DNA of 32,000 nucleotides from Candidatus Saccharimonadota bacterium (GCA_016699145.1 CP064962.1:1-32000), one strand, 5' to 3'; positions 3,987-29,473 are shown, numbered from the stretch's first letter. Notes: a model not told the origin generated them from the sequence alone. Made by a program: numbers and translations.

Positions 3987-6125
3987 CTATGCGCGTGCAC
4001 GTCGTCTCAACATCACATAACCGAGCGCCCCCAAAGTGCTGAGCAGCACCAAGGCATTCATGGCCGGTCCCGTTTCAGGAGTTCGATCCACATCTTGATC
4101 CAGCGTCGTAGACACAGGGTAGGTGGGCACCGTACTGCTTGGAGCACTTGCGCCTTCTTTCATTTCAGGCACCCCAAGCACGGCTTCACCCGCTTCACTT
4201 TCATTGCCCTCCACATCCACCGCTGTCACGGTGAAATAATAAAGTTCATTGGAGAGCAAATCACTGATGGTCCAATGTGTGGAGGAATCGGTGGTTTCTG
4301 AAACGGCAAAGAGCGCCGCTGGGGAAGGTCCGTAATAAACACGATAATAAGCCAAAGGGAGCGTACTTTCAGGGGTCTCCCAACTCAAAGCCACTAAACC
4401 GGGTCCACCGGTCGCACTGAGATTGGTCACGCTGTTCACCATTTTTTCCAAAGCGGGTTCTTGAACGGGCTCCTCATCTTCCACAGGTTCTTCTTCCAAG
4501 CTCACTTTCAAAAGAGCTTCATCTCTATATTGCACCTCATTGCCTAAAGCATCCGCAAGCAGCACATCAATAGAATACTCTCCCTCCATTGAAGGAGCGA
4601 CAAGCAAAACTTCATATTTTCCAGGACTGCTGCTTTCTTCCATACCGTACACTTCACCTTCAAATATCACAGAAGCCTCTTCCAAATCGGCCTCGCTGAG
4701 CACCACCACTTTCACATTCCCCTCGGGTTCCACTCCATTTTCAGGATCCATGCTGAGGGAAACCAATTGAGGAGCAGTGCTGTCGATACGCACGCTCTCG
4801 TTGCTCGATCTTTCCACCAACGCACCCTCTTCATCTCGAATTTCTACATAAATTTCATAATTTCCATCCTCTAAATTTTGAAGAGTGTAGGCAAAACTGT
4901 TGTCGAATTCAATATCCGCTTCACCGGCTTCTTCTTCATTCACAAAAATAAAAGCATGGTGGCCGTATTCCGCTTCACCTTGAATTTCAAGTGTGCCGGA
5001 AGAGTAACTACCCGAAGCAGGACTGATGAGTTCAAAGTCTCCTTCGCGAGCAAAATCGGTGGTTTCAAAATCGGGGTTGTAATCGACGCTAGCGTCTTCT
5101 TCATTAAGCACTTCCGTGCTGGCTTCGCCGTTCACTCGCACGTTGTCGAGGTCAGTCACGCTCAAAGTTTGCTCCCCGAGAGTGACAAATTTAACGCCCA
5201 AACTGAAGGAGTGTTCGCCTTGGTCTTCCGCCAAAAAAGTATAATCGTTGGGCAAGTCGGCCTGTTCATCACTCGAAGAAAAACGAATGCTTCCCGTATA
5301 ATCTGTCACGGTGAATCCTTCTTCATCAATGGCTTTCACAGTCACACTCAAAGAGTCACCCGTGAGACTTTCATCGTCAAGCCCAAGAATCACAAAGGCA
5401 TCCACAGGCCCACTTTCAGCGAGTTGCACAGAAGGTTCTAAGAGCAAGCCCTCCGCAGCCACTTGAGCCGGACCCAAAATGGGCTGACCTAAAGTGGAGT
5501 CAAAGAGTTGAATTTGAGCAATGCCTTCCGAGGAACCCAGTACCGAAAAGTTCATTTGTCCTTTTTCATTGGTCACAAATTCCGAACTGAACACTTGGAC
5601 AGAAGGGGAGTCGGCAGTGGCATACAGGGCATGTCCCATCACAGGATTGCCATAGGCATCTTTCAAAAGCACGTTCATTAAAGTGCTTTGTCGACTGGAG
5701 AGGACACTGCTGCTGAAATGAATGCGAGACTGAGCAAGATCGGGTTCAGCCGCCACCACCTCAAAACTTTGGGCAGCAGTGAAAGAGTTTCGTTTTTTCT
5801 CATAACCCGCTTCCAAAGCATAAGTCCCAGCGCTTTGAAATTCATTGCCGGGCAGGGTTAAAGTTCCCTGACCTTTTTCGTCCAGTTCTACAAGATAAGT
5901 TTTTGCGAGTCCATTCACACTGGTCAATTGCACCTCCACGTCCGCTTGAGCTTCACCTTGCAAGATCACTTGTAAATCGCTCCCAGCCACGGTTTCATCC
6001 ACTTTGGCCAGGCGCAGTTCCTCCGCAGGATGCAGCATTTTCAAGCCCCCGAGCAGCGTCAAAACACCCAACACGACCGCAAGAAGGCGCAAAGTTTTGT
6101 TTTGAAGAAGGAAAGAAGCTGCCAT
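3987..6125 (-). CDS. large cell-surface protein with Ig-like/FN3-like repeats and a sortase-type C-terminal sorting signal (TPETG)
   Basis: N-terminal hydrophobic signal or anchor (MAASFLLQNKTLRLLAVVLGVLTLLGG). Beta-rich repeated segments follow, then an FN3-like region (LVALSWETPES..YYRVYYG..YYFTVTAVDVEGNES). The C-terminus is TPETG (4068..4082) plus a hydrophobic stretch plus RRRARA. The start is placed at the second Met (6125) because a TATAAT box overlaps the first ATG (6147..6149); the alternative end is 6149. Confidence 0.75.
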   Translation of the reverse strand: MAASFLLQNKTLRLLAVVLGVLTLLGGLKMLHPAEELRLAKVDETVAGSDLQVILQGEAQADVEVQLTSVNGLAKTYLVELDEKGQGTLTLPGNEFQSAGTYALEAGYEKKRNSFTAAQSFEVVAAEPDLAQSRIHFSSSVLSSRQSTLMNVLLKDAYGNPVMGHALYATADSPSVQVFSSEFVTNEKGQMNFSVLGSSEGIAQIQLFDSTLGQPILGPAQVAAEGLLLEPSVQLAESGPVDAFVILGLDDESLTGDSLSVTVKAIDEEGFTVTDYTGSIRFSSSDEQADLPNDYTFLAEDQGEHSFSLGVKFVTLGEQTLSVTDLDNVRVNGEASTEVLNEEDASVDYNPDFETTDFAREGDFELISPASGSYSSGTLEIQGEAEYGHHAFIFVNEEEAGEADIEFDNSFAYTLQNLEDGNYEIYVEIRDEEGALVERSSNESVRIDSTAPQLVSLSMDPENGVEPEGNVKVVVLSEADLEEASVIFEGEVYGMEESSSPGKYEVLLVAPSMEGEYSIDVLLADALGNEVQYRDEALLKVSLEEEPVEDEEPVQEPALEKMVNSVTNLSATGGPGLVALSWETPESTLPLAYYRVYYGPSPAALFAVSETTDSSTHWTISDLLSNELYYFTVTAVDVEGNESEAGEAVLGVPEMKEGASAPSSTVPTYPVSTTLDQDVDRTPETGPAMNALVLLSTLGALGYVMLRRRARA

Positions 6126-6147
6126 ACGTACTGAGTTCAATCCGTCC

Positions 6148-6176
6148 ATTATAGCAAAAAATAAGCAAAATCACAA
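6148..6176 (-). promoter_or_regulatory. sigma70-type promoter for the surface-protein gene
   Basis: The minus strand reads TTGTGA, then a 17-nt T-rich spacer ending in TGC (extended -10), then TATAAT. The -10 box lies 22 nt upstream of ATG 6125. Confidence 0.6.
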
Positions 6177-6177
6177 G

Positions 6178-6197
6178 TCTCTAGAGGCCTCTAGAGA
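6178..6197. repeat. perfect 20-bp palindrome TCTCTAGAGGCCTCTAGAGA (candidate operator and/or terminator stem)
   Basis: Read directly from the sequence. It covers the stop codon of the PP2C gene and ends 1 nt from the -35 box of the downstream promoter. As RNA it can fold into an 8-bp stem with a GGCC loop. Confidence 0.9.
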
Positions 6198-7327
6198 GTA
6201 GAACCCGCATTGTGCCAATCGGTAGAGGAAGTTTGAGTACTGGAGTTTTCACAATGTTTCAGCACAATCAAAGTCATGTCATCGAGTTGAACCTCTCCTT
6301 CCATAAAACGTCCCACATCGATGGCGATCTTTTCAAACAGTTCGTTGGGAGTGCTTTCTTCACTCGCTTGGTTTTGAATAAAATTCGAAAGACGAGCAAG
6401 TCCATACACTTCACCTGTCATGTTTTTAGCTTCCACAATTCCGTCGGAATAAAGCACCACAAAATCATTTTCTTCCAGCACCAAATTTTGTTCTTGCACA
6501 TAGGCCTTATTGTCCGCCAGCATGCCCACCGCAATCCCACCCGCTTTCAAACTTTGAATCTGCCCATTTTTAGGTTTAAAATGGATCAAATATTCATGAC
6601 CGGCACCACTCCATTTTAGAGTATGCTGATGAGGCAACCACTCCATTAAAATCATGGTCATGAACATGGTCGGTTTGAGATGAGGTTTCAAATATTTATT
6701 CAAGTTCACCAAAATATCCGTCAGCGAATTTTGAAGATCAATAAAGGTCTCAAGCAGTGCATCCACCATCACCATCACAATTCCCGCCGGAATGCCGTGC
6801 CCGGTGGAATCTCCAATATAAATGAAATAACGCTCACCCTTTTTATAAAAGTCAAAAGTGTCTCCACCAATTTCAGAGGCAGGACGAGTTTTGGCACTGA
6901 TGCAAAGCCCGGGAATGGCAGGGGCTTCTTTAGGGATCAGCAACTGTTGAATTTCTTGAGCCGAATCCAATTCTTTGCGTAAACGTTGATGGTTTTTGAC
7001 TTCACCCGAAATATTTTCAAGATTCCGCGTCACTTCGTTAAAGAAGTGAGCCAAAACACCCACTTCATTTTGCTTGGTGGTCATCACTCGATGGTAGGGC
7101 CTACCGGTGAGCAGCGCCTTCATTTCACGGATGATTTTTTTGAAAGGAAGCGCAATGAATTCATAAAAACCCAAGGCAGCCAGCACCGTAAAAAGACCCA
7201 AAGCAATGCCCAGACGTCCGCTCTCAGAAACATGTTCGGCAGTGAGAACCCAAATCGCCGCGCAAAACACACTTAAAATAAAGAGGAATAAGACATAAAA
7301 ACGAAAGAGGTGGCGGCGGAAGAACAT
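6191..7327 (-). CDS. membrane-bound HAMP-domain PP2C (SpoIIE/RsbU-type) Ser/Thr phosphatase
   Basis: Two N-terminal TM helices, a HAMP-like linker (EVGVLAHFFNEVTRNLENI) and a SpoIIE-type core (GGDTFDF, YIGDSTGHGIPAG, LYSDGIVEA, DDMTLIVL). Confidence 0.85.
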   Translation of the reverse strand: MFFRRHLFRFYVLFLFILSVFCAAIWVLTAEHVSESGRLGIALGLFTVLAALGFYEFIALPFKKIIREMKALLTGRPYHRVMTTKQNEVGVLAHFFNEVTRNLENISGEVKNHQRLRKELDSAQEIQQLLIPKEAPAIPGLCISAKTRPASEIGGDTFDFYKKGERYFIYIGDSTGHGIPAGIVMVMVDALLETFIDLQNSLTDILVNLNKYLKPHLKPTMFMTMILMEWLPHQHTLKWSGAGHEYLIHFKPKNGQIQSLKAGGIAVGMLADNKAYVQEQNLVLEENDFVVLYSDGIVEAKNMTGEVYGLARLSNFIQNQASEESTPNELFEKIAIDVGRFMEGEVQLDDMTLIVLKHCENSSTQTSSTDWHNAGSTL

Positions 7328-7328
7328 C

Positions 7329-7349
7329 GAACTCCATTATAAGGAGTTC
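7329..7349 (-). promoter_or_regulatory. hairpin that occludes the GGAG ribosome-binding site of the PP2C gene, with TATAAT in its loop
   Basis: The minus strand reads GAACTCC-TTATAAT-GGAGTTC followed by GATG. The stem is 7 bp and perfect. The 3' arm contains GGAG 4 nt before the ATG, and the 5' arm starts in the stop codon of the upstream gene. Confidence 0.45.
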
Positions 7350-9673
7350 TAATCCGTCGAATCAAGTACCTTTTGAACCTGATGGGCCTCGTGATGGGCT
7401 GAAATTTTGGAATAAAGCAGAGACAAAGTCTCCAAATGTTCTCGACTGAGGTCCTGCAAAGTCTTCCCTTGGTAGGGGGCTAAAATTTGATGAATGGTAT
7501 CTGAAACATAATGATGAAAGGCAAAATTCACCTCCGCTGCAAAGCGACTCGACAAAGAGCCCAGCACCGAATTCATTTCTTCAAACCATTCGTGACTGGG
7601 GTCCAAAAAACGATGGATGAGACTGGGAATCACCTCTACATCTTCCAATTGAGCCAAGGACAAAAGAGCGGCTTTTTGCAGATTTTTATCTGAGCTGGCA
7701 GTCAGCTCGTGCAAAAGACTTTGGGCCGGTTTATAAACCACTTCGCCGGCAGCAACAACGCCCGCTCGCACGAAATCTTTTTTGGGACTTTTGAGCATTT
7801 GCTCCAAATGATGTACTAGAGTGCTGTGCATAGATTCATCCTTCCACAAGGCCACCAAAGCCGCGGCTCGCACTTCAGGGTCTTTATCGTCCAAAGCAGG
7901 AGCTAAATAATATTTCAAATTGGGATCGCTGAACAATTTGAGCATGCGAATGAGCTTTGCCCGATGAGCAGAATCTTCGTTGAGTCCACGAAGTACAAAG
8001 TCCGTAAAACGCTCCGCATTCATGGTGAAGAGACAATCGACGAGCGCTTCCCTCACAAGAGCATCTTTTTCCAAAAGCAAATGCGCCTCCAAAGTGTGGA
8101 GCACGCGAGTGCGAGTGAAAGAATGAGTGAAGGAAGGCTTTTTTAAAATTTCAAAACCATTCAAAGCTTGAATCACGGCAAAACGCAGACGATCGGAGGG
8201 AGAATCGAGCAAAGTGAGCAAAGTCTCCACGGCTGTCACATCTTCTCTAAGCCCCAGGGTATGGATGATTTTTTCTTTGAGCACCAAGGGTTCTTGTGGC
8301 CGTTTCAAAATGCGTTGCAAAGAACTAGCCAACGGACCGTGGCCCTTTTGACCTAAAATTTCTACCGCATTGAGCCGAGTGGATAAATCCAATTTATGGC
8401 TGAGGTTGTGTTCACACATTTCGGTGTAATGGCCAGACATGCGGCGTAGGAAAAAGCCCATGGTGGCAGCAAAAATCAAAATCAAAACGTTGAGCCCCAA
8501 AACCATGCGAGCGTCCTGAAACAGCAGCGTAATGCCGAGCACGCAGCCGGTTCCCAAAAGAGCTCCTAAAGGCTTGATCAAACCTTGCAAGACTTCCTTT
8601 GCATCGTCTCTGAGTTCATGAGGAATGGCATAATAAGTGGAGTCGTAACCGTTTTTAAAGAAAATATTGGTGAATTCAAAACCTCCCTTTACAAGAGCCG
8701 CACTGGCAAAACTGTAATGATAAGTCATGGCGAGTACATTCAAAATCACTCCAATCGGGTGCAGTAGCATGCTCCAAACCACTCCCAAGGAAGTGAGCAC
8801 CCGGCTGGCCGCAATGAGCTGAATAAAAAGAGCCACTGAATAAAAAACCATGTGCAAAGTTCCCAGTCGAGTCGTGAGATCTTCTTCGTAATGTTCACTG
8901 TGAGCCACGGCATTTTGTAAAGCATTCGTGTATTGAAATTCCACAACATTCATCACGGCCAAATGCAAACACACCACAATCAAAAGTCCTTTCAAAAAAG
9001 GAATTTTCTTGAGTTCTCTGAGTCTATTCAATAATTTTTTAGGAGCATGCACTCGGCCCTGTTCCAATTTAGGCACTTCTAAAGTTCGAGGATTGAAGAG
9101 CAGCACTATGGGCACAATAAGGAGTAGCAAAATCACCCAAAGCACCATGAATTTGTAAGCCGGAAAACTGTGCGAAAAAGTGCTGAGCAAAAATCCACCG
9201 ATGATTCCTCCTAAAGTTTCAGCCGATTCAATCACGGGGAAAACACGTTGGCTTTCTAAGGGTGAAAACAGCTCTTCATTGAACAAAGAAATAAGAATGC
9301 TGAGCTGAGTGACAAACACCGCCTGGCCAATCATGTAAAAAACAAAAAATATGCTGTTGCCTTGAGGTAGAAATGCGACGGATGCAATCAAAAAAGCCGC
9401 AGAATAAAGCACGGTGTAAGTGATCAAAAGTTCCCGCCGTACACGGTGCAAAAGCGGGCGGTAAAGCACGGTGCCCAGCATGGCCAAAAGAGCATTCCCC
9501 AGAAAGAAAACCGGCAAAAGCTGAACCCCAATTTGACTCAAAAAAGTGGCTAAAAGAATGGTCGAACCAATAATAAAGCCGATGCGAGTCAAAAAAGTCA
9601 TGCTCCAACTCACCAAAAGGCGCGGCCATTCATGATTTTGCAGGTTGAGTATTCGATTGAGAGTGGCGAGCAT
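7349..9673 (-). CDS. polytopic transporter (MFS or TLC/nucleotide-transporter-like) fused to a C-terminal HEAT/PBS-lyase repeat domain
   Basis: The first ~430 aa contain about a dozen hydrophobic helices. The last ~340 aa carry HEAT-like repeats (SDRLRFAVIQAL, DPEVRAAALVALW, DKNLQKAALLSLAQL). Confidence 0.65.
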   Translation of the reverse strand: MLATLNRILNLQNHEWPRLLVSWSMTFLTRIGFIIGSTILLATFLSQIGVQLLPVFFLGNALLAMLGTVLYRPLLHRVRRELLITYTVLYSAAFLIASVAFLPQGNSIFFVFYMIGQAVFVTQLSILISLFNEELFSPLESQRVFPVIESAETLGGIIGGFLLSTFSHSFPAYKFMVLWVILLLLIVPIVLLFNPRTLEVPKLEQGRVHAPKKLLNRLRELKKIPFLKGLLIVVCLHLAVMNVVEFQYTNALQNAVAHSEHYEEDLTTRLGTLHMVFYSVALFIQLIAASRVLTSLGVVWSMLLHPIGVILNVLAMTYHYSFASAALVKGGFEFTNIFFKNGYDSTYYAIPHELRDDAKEVLQGLIKPLGALLGTGCVLGITLLFQDARMVLGLNVLILIFAATMGFFLRRMSGHYTEMCEHNLSHKLDLSTRLNAVEILGQKGHGPLASSLQRILKRPQEPLVLKEKIIHTLGLREDVTAVETLLTLLDSPSDRLRFAVIQALNGFEILKKPSFTHSFTRTRVLHTLEAHLLLEKDALVREALVDCLFTMNAERFTDFVLRGLNEDSAHRAKLIRMLKLFSDPNLKYYLAPALDDKDPEVRAAALVALWKDESMHSTLVHHLEQMLKSPKKDFVRAGVVAAGEVVYKPAQSLLHELTASSDKNLQKAALLSLAQLEDVEVIPSLIHRFLDPSHEWFEEMNSVLGSLSSRFAAEVNFAFHHYVSDTIHQILAPYQGKTLQDLSREHLETLSLLYSKISAHHEAHQVQKVLDSTD

Positions 9674-14870: not shown

Positions 14871-15569
14871 TTATTTACGGTTTTTTCGAAGCCCTTCTTG
14901 AACAGCACCGCCCAGTTCTCCAACAAAGAATTGGATAGCCTTGATGGCATCGTCGTTTCCAGGAATCACATATTGAATTCCATCGGGATCGGCATTGCTG
15001 TCCACCACACCCACGACGGTGACCCTCATTTTAATGGCTTCTTGCACAGCGATTTTATCGCGGTGGCAGTCGAGCACAAACACCGCATCAGGCATGCGTT
15101 CAAGAGACGCCACACCCCCCAGCGCGTTTTCCAATTTCTCAATTTGCTTGTTGAATTGAACCACTTCTTTTTTGGTGTACTTGTCGAAACCGCCGTTTTC
15201 ACGCTGTTCCTTGAGGTCGAGCATGTACTTCACACGAGAGCGGATGGTCTTGAAGTTGGTCAAAAGACCTGGAATCCACTTGGAAGTTACAAAAGGCATT
15301 CCGCATTTTTCAGCGGCCTCTTGCACAATTGCCGTGGCTTGAGGTTTGGTGCTCACAAAAAGCACTGTTTTTCCATTCATCGCTGCAGCGGTGAGGAATT
15401 CTTTGGCCGCCATCAAGCCTTGATAGCTTTGATTGAGGTCAAAAATATGCACTCCATTTTTTTTGCCGTAGAGGTAAGGAGCAACCTTAGGGTTCCACTT
15501 TGCGGTCTTGTGACCGAAGTGAACGGCATTTGCAAGCATTTCTTGCATGACTTTTTTCTGATCGGACAT
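14871..15569 (-). CDS. rpsB: 30S ribosomal protein S2
   Basis: MLANAVHFGHKTAKWNPKVAPYLYG, VLFVSTKPQA and VFVLDCHRDKIAVQEA. Confidence 0.95.
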   Translation of the reverse strand: MSDQKKVMQEMLANAVHFGHKTAKWNPKVAPYLYGKKNGVHIFDLNQSYQGLMAAKEFLTAAAMNGKTVLFVSTKPQATAIVQEAAEKCGMPFVTSKWIPGLLTNFKTIRSRVKYMLDLKEQRENGGFDKYTKKEVVQFNKQIEKLENALGGVASLERMPDAVFVLDCHRDKIAVQEAIKMRVTVVGVVDSNADPDGIQYVIPGNDDAIKAIQFFVGELGGAVQEGLRKNRK

Positions 15570-15676
15570 GGTTCCTTGGGGTTAACGCTTCGCACCGTCA
15601 CTTTCCACCGAGGATCCCCTCAAAGAGCAGGACAGGAAGGCAGAATCAGGAGCAAAACTGAGATAAATACACGCCG

Positions 15677-15704
15677 ATTATACTCATTAACTCCTGTTTT
15701 GCAA
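15677..15704 (-). promoter_or_regulatory. sigma70-type promoter for the rpsB operon
   Basis: The minus strand reads TTGCAA, a 16-nt spacer, then TATAAT. This implies a leader of about 100 nt before the rpsB ATG. Confidence 0.55.
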
Positions 15705-15741
15705 GTCCCCCTAGCATTTTCAAAAACAATGTGTTACAATT

Positions 15742-17814
15742 ATGAGATTTAAAACTTTAAAAGGTTCCACTCCTATGCCCGATCAAACAAAAAAAGAAAT
15801 TCCCATCAATGACGTTGAACGTATTACGAATACGGTCAATAGAATTCCAGTCGATCTAGATGTGAAGGTAGCTTTGGAAGGGAAACTAGACACCAAGGGC
15901 CTTGCCGATGTGAAAGCAAAGATAGGGATACCTGATACTTGCAAGCTTACACTTGTACAGAATGGAACCTTTACAAAGTTGCTCACCAAGGTGCTAGGGG
16001 AAGATGATTTCAGTCAATTGAATCAGAACCAAAAGTATTTTTTGGCAGTTTTAGAACTCATCCTAGAGCAGCAAGGCTTAAATGCGGGCAAAGTGCTTCC
16101 AGAAGACGAAATTTCTTTTGATTTCACTCGAGGAACTTTTATATGGACTAGAGGTGGAGAATACCTCGATGGAGGAGATTTACATCTAAAAAATCGCGCT
16201 GAAGCTATAAAAGCCACTTCCAGCGATATACAAGCTCTGAATGAAAAGTTGTTGAAAGAGGGAATACTCACCGAAGCCTTAATGGCATACAAGGACGACC
16301 CAAGTTTTCAAGCCAGAAAGAACTATCTAAAACAAGAAGGTTTTTGTGAACTAGTCAACGCATATTTACTCCATAAAAATCCGACTGCTCAAGCAATAAG
16401 CCCAGAAAATTATAAGGGCACGCCTGAACAAAATTTAGCCTATTTGCAAGCTTATTTGAATTTTGCAGAAAAATATCGCCTCCTTCCAAATACAGGAGGA
16501 GTTTCACCAATGTCTGCTCTAGAAGGCAAAGGAGAGGAAGTGCCAGTCATACGATTGGAACTAGGAGTTATTGAGGGCAAAGCCCCCGAAGTAGCAGTCC
16601 CCGAAGTAACAGTTGAATGGGAACCAAAGGAGGGACCATTCATTGAAATTCAGCCAGAGGATGTAGAGAAAGTAACAGACTTGGATGGCAATTCTTACAA
16701 AGAACCTGAGCCTAAGGGAAACGATACTAAACAAGAAGGAGAAGGGAAGAAAGATGAAGGGAAGAAGGGAGAAGGAACGGAGGGAGAAGAAAAGAAGGAG
16801 GAAACTCCTTCAGGTGAAACTCCTTCAGGTGAAACTCCTTCAGGTGAAACTCCAGAGGAACCCGAAGACCCTGAAGCCACTAGGGAAACTAGGAAAACAA
16901 CGAATGATGCAATACAGGCCCCATTTATTCTAGAAGAATTCGATCCATACGCAGACGAAGAGCAGTTACCCGTTGGCACTAAAGGGCAAAAAAAAACAAT
17001 TGTACCGGAAACTGCCGAAGCCATTGAAAGCATGAATCCACTGAAGGCAGAATGGGAAAGCATCACAGACAAGTTTAAGGAAAACTATCCTAATGCAGGG
17101 ATACAAGTAGCTTCTCTCGAAGAGGTACAATTGACCAAAGACCAATGGTCTGAGTTAGGAATTCAAAACTCTGAAAGAAACGGTATCGATAGAGAAAATT
17201 CAAAAGTAGTTCTGTTGAAAGGTTCTGGAGGAGAGCGCAAAGTCTTTATTATTGTTCAAGAAGGAGGGGCATCCTACCTCGACAAAGGAGTCACAGCCGT
17301 GATAGAACGAGGACCAATTCCCCCTCGATACATCCGAGGAAGTCAGGGAGAAACGATTACTTACCTCCAAGCCATGGAACAGATTTCAGAGACAGAAGGA
17401 TGGAGCGTATTAACCGGATTAAATCTGGCCGCTGAAGAATTGGGATTGGAAAGATCGCCTTCCGAAGGAGATCAAGAAGCTTGGGCAGATCCGTGGAAAG
17501 TCATCTCCAAACTGGAAGGTTATGCAATGGAGGCATATACTTCCCCCAGTGCAGGCCTGCTCCTAAGACTGGACGAAGCAAAAGAGGAATTAGAAAAACA
17601 TGAAGTCCAAGCAGCTTGGGAGAAAACATTGGGGGCAGATCTTGCCACACAGAAAAGAGAAGAAGCGCTCAAACTGATCAGACAGACGGAACTTCAACCT
17701 GCGATGCTTACTGTCAAAGCCGGCTCAACAATTTTCAATAAAATTGTTGAAAAAAGAATAGAAAGGGAAATAAATAAAGAAGATAAAAAGCCAAAACAAG
17801 AAAATGAACAATAG
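15742..17814 (+). CDS. orphan 690-aa acidic/Lys-rich cytoplasmic protein of unknown function
   Basis: A long ORF with no signal peptide or TM segment. It has a central E/K/G-rich low-complexity region with three perfect ETPSG repeats. Rare-looking codons (ata, cta, aga, agg) are more frequent than in neighbouring genes, by eye. An alternative start is ATG 15775, if the extended -10 TGTTACAAT at 15732..15740 is used. Confidence 0.6.
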   Translation: MRFKTLKGSTPMPDQTKKEIPINDVERITNTVNRIPVDLDVKVALEGKLDTKGLADVKAKIGIPDTCKLTLVQNGTFTKLLTKVLGEDDFSQLNQNQKYFLAVLELILEQQGLNAGKVLPEDEISFDFTRGTFIWTRGGEYLDGGDLHLKNRAEAIKATSSDIQALNEKLLKEGILTEALMAYKDDPSFQARKNYLKQEGFCELVNAYLLHKNPTAQAISPENYKGTPEQNLAYLQAYLNFAEKYRLLPNTGGVSPMSALEGKGEEVPVIRLELGVIEGKAPEVAVPEVTVEWEPKEGPFIEIQPEDVEKVTDLDGNSYKEPEPKGNDTKQEGEGKKDEGKKGEGTEGEEKKEETPSGETPSGETPSGETPEEPEDPEATRETRKTTNDAIQAPFILEEFDPYADEEQLPVGTKGQKKTIVPETAEAIESMNPLKAEWESITDKFKENYPNAGIQVASLEEVQLTKDQWSELGIQNSERNGIDRENSKVVLLKGSGGERKVFIIVQEGGASYLDKGVTAVIERGPIPPRYIRGSQGETITYLQAMEQISETEGWSVLTGLNLAAEELGLERSPSEGDQEAWADPWKVISKLEGYAMEAYTSPSAGLLLRLDEAKEELEKHEVQAAWEKTLGADLATQKREEALKLIRQTELQPAMLTVKAGSTIFNKIVEKRIEREINKEDKKPKQENEQ
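16801..16854 (+). repeat. perfect 15-bp tandem repeat, about 3.5 copies (GAAACTCCTTCAGGT), in frame and encoding (ETPSG)3
   Basis: Units at 16801, 16816 and 16831 are identical, and a partial unit follows at 16846. Confidence 0.95.
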
Positions 17815-18448
17815 AAAAGTAAAGCTTTGTAATCAAGCCCCCTGCCCCCTCCCCGCCACCATGGATCCACTCCCTCAAGAACTCGAACAAACGGTGCCTC
17901 AGGCTCAAAAAGAGCTGAGTACGGCCGAACAAATTCCTTTGGATGAACGTCCGACGGAGATTCGCATTGCCATTCCAACTCAAGCCTATTTTCTTTCGGG
18001 TATTCGAGATTTTGTAGTCAATTTGACCAAGAATCTTACGGGTTTTTCGTCTCAATGGGCTTATCGCTTTCAAGCTGGTGTGGATGAACTGTGCAACAAC
18101 GCCATCGAACACGGCAGCAAGGCTGGGGAGTTCATCAAAATCACTCTCATCAGCACCAAAAATAAATCGCTAGAAGTGATTGTAGAAGACACAGGCACGG
18201 GTAAAGACAAAATCACAGCAGAACAATTGACCGCTTTGCTTCAAGAGCGCCGTCAAATGATGGGCACTCAATACCTCGGTTTTCGCGGTCGAGGCCTGCC
18301 TAAAATCGTGGGGGAATGGACCGACGAATTGATTTTTGAGAACACCGCTGAAGGTGGAATTCGCGTAAAAGTAAAAAAATATTTACGAAAGGAAGAGGAC
18401 AAGGTAATCTCATCCCAGCAAAATTCTCCTAGCCATCTCTACGTATGA
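17804..18448 (+). CDS. RsbW/SpoIIAB-like anti-sigma-type Ser protein kinase (HATPase_c family)
   Basis: N-box ELCNNAIEHG, G1 EDTGTG and G2 GFRGRGLPKI. ATG 17804 overlaps the upstream stop by 11 nt; ATG 17861 is an alternative start. The stop overlaps the STAS start as ATGA. Confidence 0.8.
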   Translation: MNNRKVKLCNQAPCPLPATMDPLPQELEQTVPQAQKELSTAEQIPLDERPTEIRIAIPTQAYFLSGIRDFVVNLTKNLTGFSSQWAYRFQAGVDELCNNAIEHGSKAGEFIKITLISTKNKSLEVIVEDTGTGKDKITAEQLTALLQERRQMMGTQYLGFRGRGLPKIVGEWTDELIFENTAEGGIRVKVKKYLRKEEDKVISSQQNSPSHLYV

Positions 18449-18816
18449 CCGACGTTCAAATCACCATCGAAGATCTTTCAGGTGCCCCTCAAGGCAAAGT
18501 GCTCAAGTGGATTCGCATTGTGGGCCAATTGGATGAAAGCAACGTGGATGAAAAAGCCAAAGCCATTTATCAAATCATTGAAGGGGCGCCTCAAGGGCTC
18601 AGCTTGATTTTTGACTTCACAGGTTTGGAATACATGAACAGCAAATCCATCGGATACTTGACCGATTGGTACAGCAAAGTTTCTGCCAATGGAGGAAAAG
18701 TGGTGATCGCCGCTGCCCGAGAAAACATTCTCGATATTTTACAAGTGGTGGGACTCACTCAACTCATTCCCGCTTACGCCACGCTTGACGAAGCAAAACT
18801 GGCCGTGCTTCAGTAA
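18445..18816 (+). CDS. STAS domain protein (anti-anti-sigma / RsbV-SpoIIAA-like)
   Basis: A 123-aa protein. FTGLEYMNSKSIGYL aligns to the YMDS(T/S)GLG region of RsbV/SpoIIAA, with the Ser after Asn/Asp conserved. Confidence 0.8.
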   Translation: MTDVQITIEDLSGAPQGKVLKWIRIVGQLDESNVDEKAKAIYQIIEGAPQGLSLIFDFTGLEYMNSKSIGYLTDWYSKVSANGGKVVIAAARENILDILQVVGLTQLIPAYATLDEAKLAVLQ

Positions 18817-18822
18817 GCACCG

Positions 18823-19952
18823 ATGCAAGCTTCATTCGATTCATTAAAGGTTGCCTTGGTGTGCGATTGGCTCACCGTTTTTGCTGGAGCAGAGCGAGTG
18901 ATTTTAGAATTCCACGAACTTTTTCCAAATGCGCCCATTTACACCACGCTTTATAGCGCTAAAAATTGTCCTCAATTTGCCAAGGCTGAGGTGCGGGAAT
19001 CCTGGCTGCGCTTCATTCCAGGGGCACGCCGCTTTCATCGTCTCTTTTTGCCGTGGATGCCCAAAACCTTTGAGACCCTAGATTTGGATGGCTACGACTT
19101 GGTGCTTTCTTCCTGCCATTCCACTTCTAAAGGCATAGTCACTTCCCCTCGAACCTTGCACGTTTCGTATTGTCATTCGCCCATCCGTTATGTGTGGGAT
19201 CAATCGCATCGTTATCAAAAAGAATTCAAATCATTTGCTCCTTTTCGGTTTTTATTCTTGCCTTTTTTGAATCGCTTGCGCATCTGGGACCGTCTTGCTG
19301 CCGAACGGGTGGACGCTTACCTGACCAATTCCCAGTATGTGGCGCAGCGCATCCAAAAATATTACGGCCGCTCCAGTAAGGTCATTGCGCCTCCGGTGGA
19401 TCTCTTTAAATTTTCACCTTACGAAGGTCAAAGGCAAGATTATTATTTGGCCGTGGGACGACTGATTCCTTACAAGCGTTTTGATTTGATCGTAGACGCC
19501 TGTCGAAAAGCCGGTAAAAGTTTAAAAATCGTCGGGACAGGGCCTTCCTTAAAAAACCTTAAAAAACGTGGCTCGGAGCAAGTGGAGTTTTTAGGCAAAG
19601 TGAGTGACGAAGAGTTGAAAACCATTTATCAACATGCAAAAGCCCTCATTTTTCCTCAACTGGAGGATTTTGGCATCGTGCCATTAGAGGCCATGGCCTG
19701 TGGCACGCCTGTCTTAGCTTACAAAAAAGGAGGGGCGCTAGAAACCGTAACGGAAAATGTTTCAGGCCTGTTTTTGAGGAGCAAAATGTGGACAGCTTGG
19801 TGGATGCCATCCATCGTTTTGAAAAAAAAGAATGGAAGCCTGAAGAGGTGGCGAAAAGCGTGGAATCTTTTTCTTCTTCTCGATTCAAATCGGAACTTCG
19901 TCATTTTTTAGAAGCAGAATGGAATTCTCATCAGAGCCGCTTGCATGACTGA
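18823..19952 (+). pseudogene. GT4-family glycosyltransferase with one frameshift near its 3' end
   Basis: GT-B family features are present (EDFGIVPLEAMACGTPVLAYKKGGALETV). At the T5 run 19771..19775 the frame breaks. The +1-corrected frame reads GLFFEEQNVDSLVDAIHRFEKKEW...SRLHD and stops at 19950..19952, overlapping the next ATG by 8 nt. Confidence 0.8.
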
Positions 19953-21084
19953 ACCCCTCTGTATCGCCATCGATTTGAGACCTCTTTTGGATCCCAACGA
20001 AAGTGGAGTGCAAGTTTACGTGCGCAGCATTGTGAAACGCCTTCTTCAAGACAGGTCCATCGACTGGCTGCTCTTTTACCAAGCACGCAAACCTTGCCCA
20101 CGCATCCATACCTTGTTTCCACAAGTGCTGCACTTGCCGCATTCCAATAGCAAGTTTCATTTGGCCGCCGCGTTGCATTTTTCCAAACTGCCCAAAAAGT
20201 ATTTCCCAAAAACGCCCGACCTTTTGTGGATGCCCGACCGGCGCCCTTTTTACCGGTGCCCTTTCCCGGTCGTAATGACCGTGCACGATCGAATTCCAGA
20301 GAAAGACCGCAGCAGCCTTTCTTTAAAAAGTCGCCTTTGGCACCGCCTTTTCCCTTTAAAACGACTTTTAAAACTCAGCGATGGGCTCTTGTTCCCCAGT
20401 TTAACGGTGGCCCAAAGCCTCGCTTTCAAAGGTCCCAAGGAAGTGACTTACGAAGGAGTAGAACCTTTTGTAAAACCCAAACGTCCTCAAAGTTTATCCA
20501 GCGCCATAACGGCTAAAAATTTTTATTTGGCCCTCAGCCCCGCCGATCCTCGTAAACGCTTGGAATGGATCGCAAGAGCCGCCGCTCGTTTCCCAAAAAT
20601 GAATTTCGTAGTGGCTGGTTTGAAACCCAAAGACTCACGTTTTAAAAAGCTCGAACTCACTCGCCACAAAAACCTCCATTTTTTATCTTTTGTGAATGAA
20701 GAGGAGAAAACTTGGCTCTATAAAAACGCCAAAGCTCTTTTGGCCTTGAGTCGAGCCGAAGGGTTCGACTTGCCTGTCCTCGAAGCGGTGCGGGCCAAGT
20801 GTCCCGTTTTGCTTTCAAACATTCCTGTGCACCACGAGCTTTATAAAAATGCCGAGTGGATTCAAACAGAAGAAGATCTTTGGAAAGCCCTTTATTTGGG
20901 GCAAAAGGGCAAACTGAAAATCCCAACTCCTCGTGGCAACTACAACTGGGATTTCGCAGCTCAGCGCACTTTACTTTTCTTTTTGCGCGTACTCCGTCAC
21001 GAAGATGGAAAGCGTGGTCGCCACTGGCACAGCCATGATCATGCCCACGACACCCAAAGTTTCGAGCCCAATGAGCATCGCTAA
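19945..21084 (+). CDS. GT1/GT4-family glycosyltransferase
   Basis: EX7E-type region (EGFDLPVLEAVRAKCPVLLSNIP). The last ~35 aa read through the antisense strand of the convergent AI-2E transporter gene. Confidence 0.75.
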   Translation: MTEPLCIAIDLRPLLDPNESGVQVYVRSIVKRLLQDRSIDWLLFYQARKPCPRIHTLFPQVLHLPHSNSKFHLAAALHFSKLPKKYFPKTPDLLWMPDRRPFYRCPFPVVMTVHDRIPEKDRSSLSLKSRLWHRLFPLKRLLKLSDGLLFPSLTVAQSLAFKGPKEVTYEGVEPFVKPKRPQSLSSAITAKNFYLALSPADPRKRLEWIARAAARFPKMNFVVAGLKPKDSRFKKLELTRHKNLHFLSFVNEEEKTWLYKNAKALLALSRAEGFDLPVLEAVRAKCPVLLSNIPVHHELYKNAEWIQTEEDLWKALYLGQKGKLKIPTPRGNYNWDFAAQRTLLFFLRVLRHEDGKRGRHWHSHDHAHDTQSFEPNEHR

Positions 21085-22190: not shown

Positions 22191-22697
22191 CTATTGGGTT
22201 ACAAGAAGAAGAAGAGCATTGACAATGAACCAAGAAACCAGCACCAAAACATAACCACCAATCGCATACGTAATAATGGTTTTTCCTTTTTCTTTGTCTT
22301 CAGTGACGGCGCCCAAAATATAATAATATCCACCCACCACAATCATCAGCACCACCAAAATACCCGCCACATTGATGACAAATTCCAGGGCATAATTGAT
22401 GAAATAAGGCAACATCCAAAATTGCATGTTCCCAGATTTGAGGGCGCAAGTGAGCATTTGCTCGGAACTTACGACAAAGCCATCAATCGTCTGAGACTCA
22501 GGCATTCCGTTATAACCATTTTCTGCATAGTCGGCAGTCCAAAGCTCCACCATGTCAAAACACTGCGCGATGCTTAAATTGTCCGCAACAGAATCGTCCC
22601 CTCCCGGCAAAAGCCCTGTTGCCGCTTGGCTGAGAGGAACTCCAAAAAGCATCAAAATAAAGACGGAAAGAGGAAGGAACTTTTTAAGAAAATTCAT
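22191..22697 (-). CDS. secreted/membrane protein of unknown function (signal peptide plus two C-terminal TM helices, a VirB2/TrbC-like topology)
   Basis: Signal peptide MNFLKKFLPLSVFILMLFGVPLSQA, a soluble segment of about 90 aa with two Cys, then two TM helices. The topology comparison is inference only. Confidence 0.45.
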   Translation of the reverse strand: MNFLKKFLPLSVFILMLFGVPLSQAATGLLPGGDDSVADNLSIAQCFDMVELWTADYAENGYNGMPESQTIDGFVVSSEQMLTCALKSGNMQFWMLPYFINYALEFVINVAGILVVLMIVVGGYYYILGAVTEDKEKGKTIITYAIGGYVLVLVSWFIVNALLLLVTQ

Positions 22698-26182: not shown

Positions 26183-27106
26183 CTAAATCATCTTCTCCAC
26201 CTTCGCACGCCACGCCTCACGCACCTCAAGCCGTGCATCTTTGTCATGAAACTTGAGCATGGAGTCCGAAATCACCGTACCCCTTTTATCTTCCAGCTCA
26301 TGAAACTTCGCCAGCGCGCGTCCCCACTGTTTTTCCCGGCACCAACGTTCCACCTTGTCGGAGTCGAGAAGCCACTCAAGGAGGCGATGTGCAAGTTTAA
26401 CCCATCCGCGGCTTGCCCTAAAGTAGCGTTTGCGTCGAACAGGCGCAGCAAAATAAGTGGAAAGCCAAGGCCAATTGAGCGCAATAAAATCCTCATAAAC
26501 ACTATAATCTCCCGCCACAGGCTGTAAGCTTTGCGCCCAAAACCCTAAGTAAATGTCATAAGGTTTCAAGAGCAGGGGGCTCAAATCCAGCGCTTCTTCC
26601 GTCACATAAAAACTCAAACAAAAGCGCTCGCGAATTTTCTGTCCATGCCGCCGAAGTCCAAAAAGAGAAGTCAGTAGCGTCAAAGCCAGACGGGCCGTAA
26701 AAAGTCGCCCCGGCTCAGCCACCACAAACAAATCGATGTCGCTGTTTTTGCGCGTGTCGCCCATTGTCACGCTGTTGCACACCGCAACGAGTCGCACAAA
26801 AGGGCAGAGTTGAAAAAGCCACCGCCACCGTGCCACTTTCGCAAAAGCGGCTCGAGTGCGCGCCTGTTTTTCCTCCCACTCTTTCCAAAACTCAGGGTTC
26901 CAGTGAAAACTCAAAAAGCCCTCGCGACGCATCACATAAGAGCTGTCTTTTAAATAAAGATCCAGGGCTCGCTCATCTGGCTTCTGGAAAAGCAAATAGT
27001 CGCTGAGTTCCTCGCGCGTCAAGGGCACTTCAAAAAGATCAAAATAGGCGAGGGTCGCCAGCACCGACTGTTTCACCGTCAATTGTTTAGGAAGCTCCAT
27101 TGCCAT
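26183..27106 (-). CDS. Pol-beta-superfamily nucleotidyltransferase-domain protein of unknown function
   Basis: An NTase signature is present (NSVTMGDTRKNSDIDLFVV, i.e. [GS]-x10-DxD), with a helical N-terminal segment (VLATLAYFDLFEVPLTREEL) and a helical C-terminus. The start is set at MAMELPKQ (27106); the track start at 27160 would overlap uvrC. Confidence 0.6.
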   Translation of the reverse strand: MAMELPKQLTVKQSVLATLAYFDLFEVPLTREELSDYLLFQKPDERALDLYLKDSSYVMRREGFLSFHWNPEFWKEWEEKQARTRAAFAKVARWRWLFQLCPFVRLVAVCNSVTMGDTRKNSDIDLFVVAEPGRLFTARLALTLLTSLFGLRRHGQKIRERFCLSFYVTEEALDLSPLLLKPYDIYLGFWAQSLQPVAGDYSVYEDFIALNWPWLSTYFAAPVRRKRYFRASRGWVKLAHRLLEWLLDSDKVERWCREKQWGRALAKFHELEDKRGTVISDSMLKFHDKDARLEVREAWRAKVEKMI

Positions 27107-27135
27107 ACACGAGGTTCTTATTTTACCATGGGTAT

Positions 27136-29473
27136 ATGGCAAAGTCCCACATTGAATCACTTTTGGAAAAACTTCCGCAAACCCCGGGTGTGTATAAAAT
27201 GAAGGATGAGGAGGGGCGTATCCTTTACGTGGGCAAAGCCAAAAATTTGAGTCGTCGTGTGCGCTCCTACTTTCGCAAACAGCAAAATCGCCCCATGCGC
27301 ACGCAAAAATTGGTGGAGTGCATCGCAGACCTCGAATGGATCGAAGTGGGCAGCGATCTCGAAGCTCTTTTCCTAGAAACCAACCTAATCAAGGAATATC
27401 GGCCCAAGTACAACATCTTGATGAAGGACGACAAAACTACATCTACATCAAAATCACTAAGGAAGATTTCCCACAAATTCAACTGGTGCGGAAGGTGGAA
27501 AAGGATGGCGCGCGTTACTTTGGCCCCAAAACCGCCGCCGGCACCGTGCGCAAAACTCTCATGCTCCTGCAAAAACTATTCATGTTTCGCAGCTGCGACC
27601 TGGGCATCACCTGGACTCCCGACAGCGAATTTCCCGAAAAAGGCCTCGCCACCGTCACAAAAAAAACCATCGCCTACCCCTGTCTGGATTATCACATCAA
27701 ACGCTGCGCGGCCCCTTGCATCGGAAAAATCACGCCGGAGGACTATAAAAAATCCATCGACAAAATCAGCCTTTTCCTCGAAGGAAAATCCAGCGAAATC
27801 GAACAGCAACTCAAGGATCAAATGGCCCTCTGCGCCGCTGAAAAACAGTTTGAAAAAGCCGCGCTGCTCCGTGACAAACTCCTTGCGCTTCAAGAGCTCA
27901 TGGTGCCCAACAAACAGGTGGTCACTTCACCCGAACAGGACAGCATGGACGTTTTTGCCTTTGTGCTCGAAGGGGGAAAGGCCTATTTCAACCTCTTCAT
28001 GCTGCGTGAAGGCAAGCTCATCAATCAAGAAAACTTCATTGCAGACGCCTTTGGTTTTGAGCCTGGGGAGGAGGAGCAAGCCGTGGAAGTCATGGAAGCT
28101 TTTCTTTACCAATATTATGGCAAAGCCACCGATTTCCCCAAACGGTGCTGATTCCTCACGAATTCGAAGAGCCCGACTTTCTCGAAGATTTTCTCAGCAG
28201 CCAAGCCGACTGCCGCGTTTATGTAAAAGTGCCTGAGCGGGGTCGCAAGCACCAACTTCTCGAACTTGCCGAAAAGAACGCCCGCAGCTTTCAAAAGCAG
28301 CACAAAGCTCGCTGGGAAGGCTTTGAAGAACGCGATGAAGAAGCTTTGGAGGAACTGGCAAAATACCTCAGCCTCCCCAAAAAACCCAAGCGCATGGAAT
28401 GCTATGACATTTCCCACCTGGGTGGTTCCGACACCGTGGCGAGTATGGTGGTTTTTGAAAATGGAAAATCCAAAAAGAGCGATTATCGTAAATTTCATCT
28501 CAAATCTTTAGCAGAAGGGGAGATCGACGACTTCAAATCCATGAAAGAAATTTTGTATCGCCGCCTTTCTTATCTCTACCGGGCACCCGCCGGCCTCACT
28601 TTTAAAAAGGCCGCCAAAACGCACAAGGCGGGCATCGAAGAATTGCTCACGGAGTGGCGCAAAGAACCGCAAATCGTGGGCAATGAACTCAGTGAATTCA
28701 CAGTGGCGCTCAAAGATAAAAAAGTGATAGCTCTCCTTCGCCTCACCGAAAGCAGTCCAGCTTGCTACCTGCAAAAATCGCTTTACGTGCTGCCGAGCGA
28801 ACGTGAACAAGGCATTGCCAAAGCCCTAATGCGCTGGACCTTCGACCACAAAAAAGCCAAACGTGTTTACCTGAGCTGCGACGAAGATAGGTGCGCGTAC
28901 TACAAAGATTTTGGCTTCGAAGAAGTCAAAAAAATACCTGAAGAATTTCTACTCCAACTCGAGACTGAACCCTATATGAAGGTCAAAAAATACCTGCTGG
29001 CTTACGACCCCACCAAGCACAAAGATGCCTCTTTTGAATCTAAACCTGACCTCATTGTCATCGATGGGGGAAAGGGCCAACTCAGTCACGCTCAAGAGAG
29101 TGCCCAAGAACTCGCTTGCACCATCCCTATGATCGGTCTCGCCAAACGCGAAGAGGAGGTCTTTGTGCCCGGCAAACCTTTTCCGATTTTAATGCCGAGC
29201 GACTCCAAAGCTTCTTACCTTTTGCAGCGCATCCGCAATGAAGCCCATCGCTTCGCCATAACCTTCCAACGCTCCACCCGCAAACAACACCTCACTGAAT
29301 CCGCCCTGGATAAAGTGAGTGGCCTCGGGGACGTCGGAAAAATGAAACTTCTGGAATACTTCGGCTCCGTCGAACAGATCAAAAAAGCCAGTGAAGCCGA
29401 CATCGCCAGTGTGGTGGGCAAAAGTTTGGCAGGGAAGATTTTGGAGGAATTATATGAAGAGCTTGATGTTTAG
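27136..29473 (+). pseudogene. uvrC: excinuclease ABC subunit C (UvrC), split over three frames by two single-base frameshifts and carrying a GNAT-like insertion
   Basis: GIY-YIG domain (GVYKMKDEEGRILYVGKAKNLSRRVRSY, EYRPKYNILMKDDK). After the A4 run 27433..27436 the reading continues in the frame of ORF 27318..28151 (NYIYIKITKEDFPQ, UVR domain QFEKAALLRDKLLALQEL). After CCCCAAA at 28136..28142 it continues in ORF 28145..29473 (ECYDISH, IDGGKGQL, IRNEAHRFA, HhH GLGDVGKMKLLEYFGS). Confidence 0.9.

Follow-up and report, generated by a model that had tools for sequence, protein, structure and literature searches.

Known partner-switching systems

The SpoIIAB/SpoIIAA/SpoIIE and RsbW/RsbV/RsbU-P modules of Bacillus each combine a Ser kinase, a STAS-domain protein and a SpoIIE/PP2C-type phosphatase, with the kinase and STAS genes lying side by side in the order antagonist, kinase, sigma. 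The first 32 000 nt of sequence CP064962.1 (assembly GCA_016699145.1, Candidatus Saccharimonadota bacterium), referred to here as the window, encode the same three protein types, again with adjacent kinase and STAS genes and with the phospho-Ser motif in the same position. The locus differs from the Bacillus modules in several respects: there is no sigma gene in the operon or in the 32 kb, the kinase gene precedes the STAS gene, the phosphatase is encoded approximately 10 kb away beside a major facilitator superfamily (MFS)-like protein with HEAT repeats (MFS–HEAT), and the pair is set with genes for glycosyltransferases of family 4 (GT4), of which the first downstream is termed GT1 and the second GT2. 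In addition, the kinase misses the RsbW and SpoIIAB equivalog thresholds widely.

In Vibrio fischeri, a phosphorylatable single-domain STAS protein, SypA, and an RsbW-like kinase, SypE, are encoded within the glycosyltransferase cluster syp; the output is no known sigma factor, and the unphosphorylated STAS protein is thought to promote polysaccharide production via a target (PMC8256260, PMC4517449). The present locus resembles syp in the linkage of STAS and kinase genes to glycosyltransferase genes, with a 6-nt gap before GT1 in the window and a downstream GT1 gene in 59/60 species. SypE fuses kinase, receiver and PP2C domains, whereas the kinase (195 aa) and the membrane-anchored PP2C protein (378 aa) are separate here, and the syp locus has 18 genes compared with two or three; the likeness drawn here is one of architecture.

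In Anabaena PCC 7120, the kinase Alr3423 and the SpoIIE-like HenR act on the STAS Ser of All4160 and so switch a polysaccharide enzyme directly, a mechanism that the authors consider largely cyanobacteria-specific (PMC13555669). The common elements are a kinase, a SpoIIE-type phosphatase and a STAS domain beside or within a glycan enzyme. The STAS domain of All4160 is fused to a Bac_transf phosphoglycosyl transferase, whereas that of the window is a stand-alone 123-aa protein with a GT4 neighbour, and HenR carries a receiver domain where the phosphatase described here has two transmembrane helices. The initial annotation of the window did not recognise this gene context, for which syp (SypE/SypA) and All4160/HenR/Alr3423 are published analogues (PMC8256260, PMC13555669).

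Chlamydia trachomatis has no sigma-B but encodes RsbW, RsbV1, RsbV2 and RsbU, and the primary sigma-66 is the reported target of its RsbW (PMC8256260). A reduced genome, a kinase, a membrane PP2C, two STAS proteins (in distant Peregrinibacteria) and the scattering of components over separate loci are points of likeness. However, the lineage of the window has one STAS protein in 32 kb, and Chlamydia shows no glycosyltransferase linkage. In the SiaABCD system of Pseudomonas aeruginosa, a membrane PP2C and a small kinase set the state of a partner protein that activates a diguanylate cyclase and not a sigma factor. Here there is no diguanylate cyclase, the partner is a canonical STAS protein, and the PP2C protein matches SiaA with 35 bits against a cut-off of 700.

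Sigma-less and glycan-linked STAS switches are already established. What is new is the lineage, Peregrinibacteria of the candidate phyla radiation (CPR), with phylum-wide fixation and housekeeping-level conservation, and the split architecture, in which the kinase and STAS genes stand beside a GT4 gene and the phosphatase gene stands beside the MFS–HEAT gene (with a second STAS gene in distant relatives). Peregrinibacteria are ultra-small CPR bacteria with genomes of approximately 1.3 Mb. Regulation in CPR/Patescibacteria is almost unexplored. A literature search combining partner-switching, STAS and sigma terms with CPR lineage names found no paper describing such a module in CPR, and the Peribacteria genome paper makes no mention of sigma factors or glycosyltransferases and does not discuss regulation (PMC4736985).

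The kinase, STAS protein and PP2C phosphatase very probably form a genuine module, and this three-part partner-switching phospho-module is conserved throughout the Peregrinibacteria. As its output, the GT1-dependent synthesis of envelope glycans or glycolipids may be controlled at the protein level, a proposal that is favoured over the others but made tentatively and rated slightly short of an even chance; confidence in the scheme as a whole is set by this output, its weakest link.

The kinase–STAS pair

The following genes of the window are central to the proposal.

17861..18448, + strand: Ser kinase of the RsbW/SpoIIAB fold (GHKL ATPase), 195 aa; Pfam HATPase_c_2, sequence boxes and predicted fold
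18445..18816, + strand: single-domain STAS protein (anti-sigma-antagonist type), 123 aa, phospho-acceptor Ser66; STAS, TIGR00377
18823..19951, + strand: GT1, GT4-family glycosyltransferase, 376 aa after frameshift correction; Glycos_transf_1, Glyco_transf_4
6191..7327, − strand: membrane-anchored SpoIIE/PP2C Ser phosphatase, 378 aa; SpoIIE (PF07228), 150.9 bits

In searches with hidden Markov models (HMMs), the kinase ORF (17804/17861–18448) matches Pfam HATPase_c_2 with 36.3 bits (gathering threshold 27.4). The STAS protein matches PF01740 STAS with 51.6 bits and TIGR00377 (ant_ant_sig) with 57.9 bits (cut-off 53.45), and its PDB sequence matches are STAS/SpoIIAA proteins and TM1442. Both assignments therefore hold above threshold, and the pair, initially described as an RsbW-like kinase with a STAS partner, is genuine by HMMs, motifs and predicted fold. 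The stop codon of the kinase gene and the start codon of the STAS gene overlap as ATGA at 18445–18448, the coupling that had been described at the outset.

An NCBI 195-aa ‘ATP-binding protein’ is 100% identical to the kinase of the window; its neighbours in the window have the accessions QQR54958–QQR54970 and locus tags of the form IPG41_000xx. Kinase orthologues are 191–199 aa long and all open with ‘MD’, which corresponds to position 17861 of the window (M20), and the 19 codons upstream of 17861 have no counterpart in the listed orthologues. Because of the 195-aa NCBI protein and the alignment of orthologues from the conserved ‘MD’, the kinase start is placed at 17861 and the start at 17804 is dropped. 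The 11-nt overlap with the preceding 690-aa ORF, reported initially, disappears as a result, and the two genes are separated by a 46-nt spacer.

The N, G1 and G2 boxes of anti-sigma Ser kinases had been noted in the sequence and are kept across 25 orthologues. No variation is seen in the N box (D75-E-L-C-N-N-A-I-E-H-G-S86, with E76-x3-N80-A-x2-H84) or in the G2 box (G140-F-R-G-R-G-L-P147), and little or none in the G1 box (D110-T-G112). Beyond a variable N-terminal region of approximately 30 aa, probably disordered, the core is strongly conserved, and so is the KKYLRKEED tail that closes the protein. In the STAS protein, the phosphorylatable Ser that the initial annotation had pointed out, Ser66, lies in a Y-M-N-S-K-S-I-G loop and is invariant in 77 sequences, as are N65-S66-K67 and G70. 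In solved antagonists of the TM1442/SpoIIAA type, the phospho-Ser stands at the aligned position (motif DS(A/S)GLG). Phosphorylation of Ser66 by the adjacent kinase, and its dephosphorylation by the PP2C protein, are inferred from the adjacency of the pair in 79/79 loci, the intact catalytic motifs and the conserved PP2C gene nearby.

An AlphaFold2 (AF2) model of the kinase, built on the orthologue alignment, has a predicted local distance difference test (pLDDT) score of 74.8, and its best PDB fold matches are SpoIIAB structures (E 2e-7, probability 1.0, target template modelling score 0.67–0.75, and 0.73–0.75 for 1th8/1l0o), which are complexes with SpoIIAA or sigma-F. A PDB sequence search with the single kinase sequence gave no match, and a profile search gave marginal RsbW/MutL/SpoIIAB matches only (RsbW, E=0.063). 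These matches bear on an alternative in which the kinase sequesters a primary or alternative sigma factor encoded elsewhere and dephosphorylated STAS protein frees it, the glycosyltransferases being mere neighbours or part of the regulon. Such an output is the main rival to GT1 and is regarded as rather unlikely, yet SpoIIAB with SpoIIAA or sigma-F provides the best fold matches, and RsbW and SpoIIAB are the best, if weak, NCBIfam and PDB-profile matches. Against this, the kinase falls far below the equivalog cut-offs of both RsbW (NF003144; 29.6 bits vs 145) and SpoIIAB (TIGR01925; 21.5 bits vs 135), and an RsbW-like fold is not discriminating, as it is shared by the non-sigma kinases SypE and BtrW (PMC8256260). 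Canonical modules are, in addition, usually in an operon with their sigma gene. Pfam scans found no sigma-70 family domain in any substantial ORF of the 32-kb window, in agreement with the initial annotation, and with approximate query peptides and no positive control, no RpoD region-2/-4-like sequence was found in 86 related loci (1.36 Mb, ±10 kb; 80 species).

Conservation among relatives

A scan with one genome per species identified kinase relatives in at least 206 species. These go under the names Peregrinibacteria or Peribacteria, or under those of related CPR lineages, bar a few metagenome-assembled genomes that are probably mis-binned. Gene order was examined by tblastn with the window proteins in 80 of the 206 species loci, with ±10 kb flanks, and in four metagenomic loci. 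Counts are given per loci with room for the gene in question.

STAS gene directly after the kinase gene: 79/79 loci
GT1 gene on the same strand, within 2.2 kb downstream: 59/60 loci
rpsB divergent upstream: 60/65 loci
SpoIIE gene within 10 kb upstream: 39/49 loci
AI-2E gene downstream: 45/48 loci

Of the gene order described initially (690-aa ORF, kinase, STAS, two glycosyltransferases), the kinase–STAS–GT1 portion is thus general, while GT2 is present in 34/48 loci and the 690-aa ORF in 0/84. Five species no longer have rpsB next to the pair on its upstream side; in L039, L045 and L065, the three whose downstream sequence is long enough, kinase–STAS–GT1 is kept. The same three loci also extend far enough upstream, where they show no phosphatase/MFS–HEAT block. 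The link to GT1 has therefore outlived at least one rearrangement.

Mean all-vs-all pairwise identities in 66 species were as follows.

STAS: 65.7%
RibBA: 63.1%
kinase: 59.5%
EF-Ts: 58.8%
ribosomal protein S2: 57.9%
GT1: 56.1%
Der: 51.4%
SpoIIE: 49.3%
AI-2E: 45.1%

In 94% of species pairs, the STAS proteins are more alike than the S2 proteins. The value for the kinase is somewhat inflated, since the loci were picked by kinase similarity; those for STAS and GT1 are not affected by this selection. In distant relatives, identities are 64% for STAS, 54% for the kinase, 49% for GT1, 37% for AI-2E and 29% for MFS–HEAT. Signalling pairs are not usually under such constraint, which suggests a partner that is itself core and slow to evolve; GT1 shows a matching degree of conservation. 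The same housekeeping-level conservation of STAS and kinase would also fit RNA polymerase or a sigma factor as the very conserved partner. A switch that at least 206 species retain, in a phylum with reduced genomes, and that shows ribosomal-protein-level conservation is probably central to their biology.

Phosphatase and MFS–HEAT protein

The initial annotation listed the kinase and STAS protein correctly but overlooked the SpoIIE/PP2C phosphatase at 6191–7327, 10.5 kb upstream of the pair. Two N-terminal hydrophobic helices (residues 5–34 and 36–62) and a linker of approximately 90 aa precede the PP2C domain, in which the metal-binding motifs are intact (GGD154, GDSTGHG172, SDG294 and DDMT349). 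The domain shows weak partial matches to the SpoIIE and SiaA models. A HAMP domain in the linker was considered and dropped, as Pfam gives no match there. This protein is presumed to be the phosphatase for the phosphorylated STAS protein.

The adjoining gene encodes the MFS–HEAT protein.

7349..9673, − strand: MFS-like membrane protein with C-terminal HEAT repeats, 774 aa; HEAT_2, 79.2 bits

It lies directly upstream of the phosphatase gene in the same direction, with a 21-nt gap (7327/7349), and the two genes remain neighbours in relatives. The protein has multiple hydrophobic segments and matches MFS_1 with 25.5 bits, below the gathering threshold; it may be a transporter-type co-sensor or an alternative partner of the switch. 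A second STAS domain hidden in the C-terminus of the window protein was rejected, since Pfam shows HEAT repeats only. In distant relatives (L042–L084), a second single-domain STAS gene does lie between the SpoIIE and MFS–HEAT genes, encoding 115–125 aa with the motif F-I-N-S-E-S/G-I-G, in which the Ser is kept (e.g. L057, 2242–2607, − strand). In the lineage of the window, the second STAS gene has been lost from this position. On the other side, the phosphatase gene adjoins a gene for a 720-aa Ig-like/fn3 surface protein (3987–6149, − strand), which is kept in the syntenic block.

The occurrence of two STAS paralogues with a membrane phosphatase in distant Peregrinibacteria recalls RsbV1/RsbV2/RsbU of Chlamydia and is a further point in favour of a sigma factor as target (PMC8256260). 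It can also be read in another way. The switch might act on a transport or envelope protein, namely MFS–HEAT with its HEAT scaffold, the convergently encoded AI-2E transporter or, in distant relatives, a PrsW-family protease. The phosphatase is always encoded beside MFS–HEAT, a second phosphorylatable STAS gene lies between the two in distant relatives, AI-2E is retained in nearly all loci with room, and STAS domains regulate SulP/SLC26 transporters (PMC8256260). This reading is nevertheless improbable: MFS–HEAT and AI-2E are far less conserved than STAS, the kinase and GT1, as the identities in distant relatives show, and the three loci without a phosphatase/MFS–HEAT block upstream still keep kinase–STAS–GT1.

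GT1 and the proposed output of the switch

The initial annotation placed two glycosyltransferase genes 6 nt after the STAS gene on the same strand, which is accurate; both are of the GT4 family, and GT1 is frameshifted as read. GT1 matches Glycos_transf_1 with 97.9 bits and Glyco_transf_4 with 41.2 bits. As read, it spans 18823–19911, with a frameshift within a T5 run at 19771–19775, and three-frame translation reveals the continuation ‘FEEQNVDSLVDAIHRFEKKEW’. With one extra T, the protein reads ...GLFFEEQNVDSLVDAIHRFEKKEW..., comprises 376 aa and ends at a stop at 19951, overlapping the GT2 start. Over its full length, the corrected protein can be aligned with orthologues, at 43–80% identity. 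UvrC, which is intact in relatives, is likewise split in the window, into two overlapping ORFs (27100–28236 and 28145–29473, + strand), probably by a frameshift. The colinearity of corrected GT1 with its orthologues and the similar state of UvrC suggest that these frameshifts are homopolymer assembly errors rather than marks of pseudogenes.

In the proposed mechanism, the RsbW/SpoIIAB-fold kinase would phosphorylate Ser66 of the adjacent STAS protein, and the membrane-anchored PP2C protein would dephosphorylate this Ser on a cue from the membrane or envelope. The phosphatase would thus form the input arm, possibly together with MFS–HEAT. A conserved promoter divergent from rpsB could drive kinase, STAS and GT1 together, and the pair is predicted to be co-transcribed with GT1. 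Unphosphorylated STAS protein, or freed kinase, might then bind GT1 or a GT1 complex, so that the switch would act like SypA/SypE and All4160/HenR/Alr3423 and not through a locally encoded sigma factor.

GT1 is favoured as the output because its linkage to the pair is tight, on the same strand, near-universal and resistant to rearrangement, because its level of conservation matches that of the pair, and because the experimental precedents act on polysaccharide synthesis and not on sigma factors (PMC8256260, PMC4517449, PMC13555669). Envelope glycosylation in place of a sigma factor had been one of the two outputs suggested by the initial annotation, and it stays a candidate. A stronger version is more speculative and rather doubtful: that a housekeeping-grade, sigma-independent switch gates a core envelope GT4 enzyme directly, with sensor input from PP2C and MFS–HEAT, as a phylum-fixed envelope-homeostasis circuit.

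Several observations weigh against GT1 as the output. The region of approximately 20 kb from SpoIIE to der is syntenic phylum-wide, so the adjacency of GT1 could be inherited gene order. The STAS–GT1 gap is at least 500 nt in 30/59 loci, mainly in distant relatives (kinase identity below approximately 60%), and one locus, L038, keeps the kinase–STAS pair without GT1 downstream. In partial Mantel tests controlled for S2, EF-Ts and RibBA distances, rate covariation is significant for kinase–GT1 (r=0.43) and STAS–GT1 (r=0.32) but no higher than in controls, the unrelated pairs Der–RibD and GT1–Der scoring 0.61 and 0.53. The cyanobacterial precedent has its STAS domain fused to a Bac_transf enzyme, not placed beside a GT4 enzyme, and true anti-sigma factors are the nearest structural and HMM relatives of the kinase.

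In addition, the far-clade loci examined hold a co-directional gene for a PrsW-family intramembrane protease between STAS and GT1, a position at which the window has no such gene. In Bacillus, the PrsW family cleaves an anti-sigma factor, and the presence of a PrsW-type protease in the operon of distant relatives is therefore one more point on the side of a sigma target. The PrsW-family proteins are 360–440 aa long with a C-terminal extension and occur in approximately 30 far-clade loci (e.g. L057, 10987–12138; L084, 11561–12820; L064, 10981–12066).

If the output is indeed the GT4 enzyme, a second, independent lineage would use partner switching to control a glycan-synthesis enzyme rather than transcription, and STAS control of a glycan enzyme, so far shown only in cyanobacteria, would extend to a stand-alone STAS protein and to CPR. 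It would also provide a handle on surface remodelling by episymbiotic CPR cells. If the output is instead a sigma factor, the module would form a parallel to that of Chlamydia.

The 690-aa ORF and the operon leader

Between rpsB and the kinase gene, the window contains the following features.

14871..15569, − strand: rpsB (ribosomal protein S2), divergent upstream neighbour; rpsB–tsf run
15733..15740, + strand: conserved extended −10 element TGTTACAAT, from alignment with L005 and L006
15742..17814, + strand: 690-aa ORF; no Pfam, NCBIfam or PADLOC match

The segment at 15570–15741, upstream of the 690-aa ORF, aligns with the sequence that lies between rpsB and the kinase gene in L005 and L006. 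These two loci share the TGnTACAAT extended −10 element, which directly precedes the kinase gene there and is the predicted operon promoter. A generic sigma-70 promoter scan found no more sites than in shuffled sequence, a terminator scan was also at background level, and an Rfam scan found only tRNA-Leu.

The N-terminal domain of the 690-aa protein is confidently predicted to fold; its middle is of low complexity, acidic and rich in Lys, with (ETPSG)3, and its C-terminal half is unique. The true start of the protein is probably M12 (15775), since the ATG at 15742 comes 1 nt after the end of the −10 element and the alignment with homologues begins at approximately residue 12. In tblastn searches, the protein had no match in 84 related loci; in L005 and L006, whose kinases are 85–87% identical to that of the window, the ORF is missing and rpsB and the kinase gene are only approximately 200 nt apart. 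As the leader ahead of the ORF aligns with the spacer between rpsB and the kinase gene in these relatives, the ORF is read as a lineage-specific insertion between promoter and kinase gene. In other lineages, the rpsB–kinase interval holds a gene for an XRE-type helix-turn-helix (HTH) protein, an AroQ chorismate mutase, other singletons or nothing.

The initial annotation regarded the 690-aa protein as an orphan and as a possible output of the switch. The first description holds only in part. A word-indexed search of 5.8 billion proteins matched the protein to itself alone, while an exhaustive phmmer search of 1.84 billion representatives found 19 other clusters, which match at residues ~16–306 only (25–36% identity). 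One homologue of the N-terminal domain was seen in an unrelated CPR gene context. In the AF2 prediction, pLDDT exceeds 90 over most of residues 20–235, and the N-terminal domain model has no match in the PDB or in BFVD, a viral structure library. This domain of approximately 225 aa (window 15775–16500) is without a Pfam family and occurs in approximately 20 clusters, mostly at the N-terminus of proteins of 600–1500 aa.

The suggestion that the 690-aa protein is the output or a partner of the switch has been rejected and is very improbable. In its favour, the ORF shares the strand of the kinase gene, ends 46 nt before it, follows the shared promoter and is probably co-transcribed with the kinase gene in this strain. 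However, it is a strain-specific insertion, absent from the related loci even where the kinases are 85–87% identical, and its position is taken elsewhere by unrelated genes (HTH protein, chorismate mutase) or by none. Its homologues share the N-terminal domain alone, in unrelated contexts, and a strain-specific partner cannot explain phylum-wide constraint on the kinase and STAS protein. The ORF is thus very likely to lie outside the switch module.

The AroQ chorismate mutase gene (85 aa) lies directly upstream of the kinase gene on the same strand in 29 loci (e.g. L028, 9662–9919, + strand; L027–L034). It is an odd gene for organisms with sparse metabolism, and the rpsB–kinase interval appears as a variable insertion site.

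Genes downstream of GT1

The genes that follow GT1 in the window are listed here.

19945..21084, + strand: GT2, second GT4 glycosyltransferase, 379 aa; Glycos_transf_1, 58.1 bits
20971..22233, − strand: AI-2E family transporter; AI-2E_transport, 209 bits; convergent with GT2

GT2 is poorly conserved, with 25–68% identity in the loci that have it. Its 3' end overlaps that of the AI-2E gene by 114 nt (20971–21084), and the convergent AI-2E gene marks the operon end; an overlap of the two genes is also present in relatives (e.g. L001, 13640–13726). Between GT1 and GT2, 29/48 loci encode a protein of approximately 190 aa with a transmembrane helix at each end, which the window does not have (e.g. 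L001, 12097–12675). It has no family match, and by eye its topology recalls polysaccharide co-polymerase/Wzz.

A role of the locus in anti-phage defence, as GT4-conflict, was also considered and rejected, as the PADLOC defence models gave no match for the kinase, STAS, GT1, GT2, the 690-aa ORF or PP2C. The sole PADLOC match is a HEAT-repeat match of MFS–HEAT, and the Pfam GT4-conflict matches of the glycosyltransferases are marginal (28.3 and 26.7 bits vs 26), far weaker than those to generic GT4 families.

A small membrane protein of the T4SS_pilin family (PF18895) is encoded at 22191–22697 (− strand), adjoins the AI-2E gene and is kept in the syntenic block. T4SS_pilin-family and Ig-like/fn3 genes are typical CPR surface genes. 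Further downstream, the UvrC protein (27100–29473, + strand) has a GNAT acetyltransferase domain inserted within its RNase H-like endonuclease domain. In relatives, this UvrC–GNAT chimera is a single ORF of 696–763 aa (e.g. L001, 17751–20021; L002, 18339–20573).

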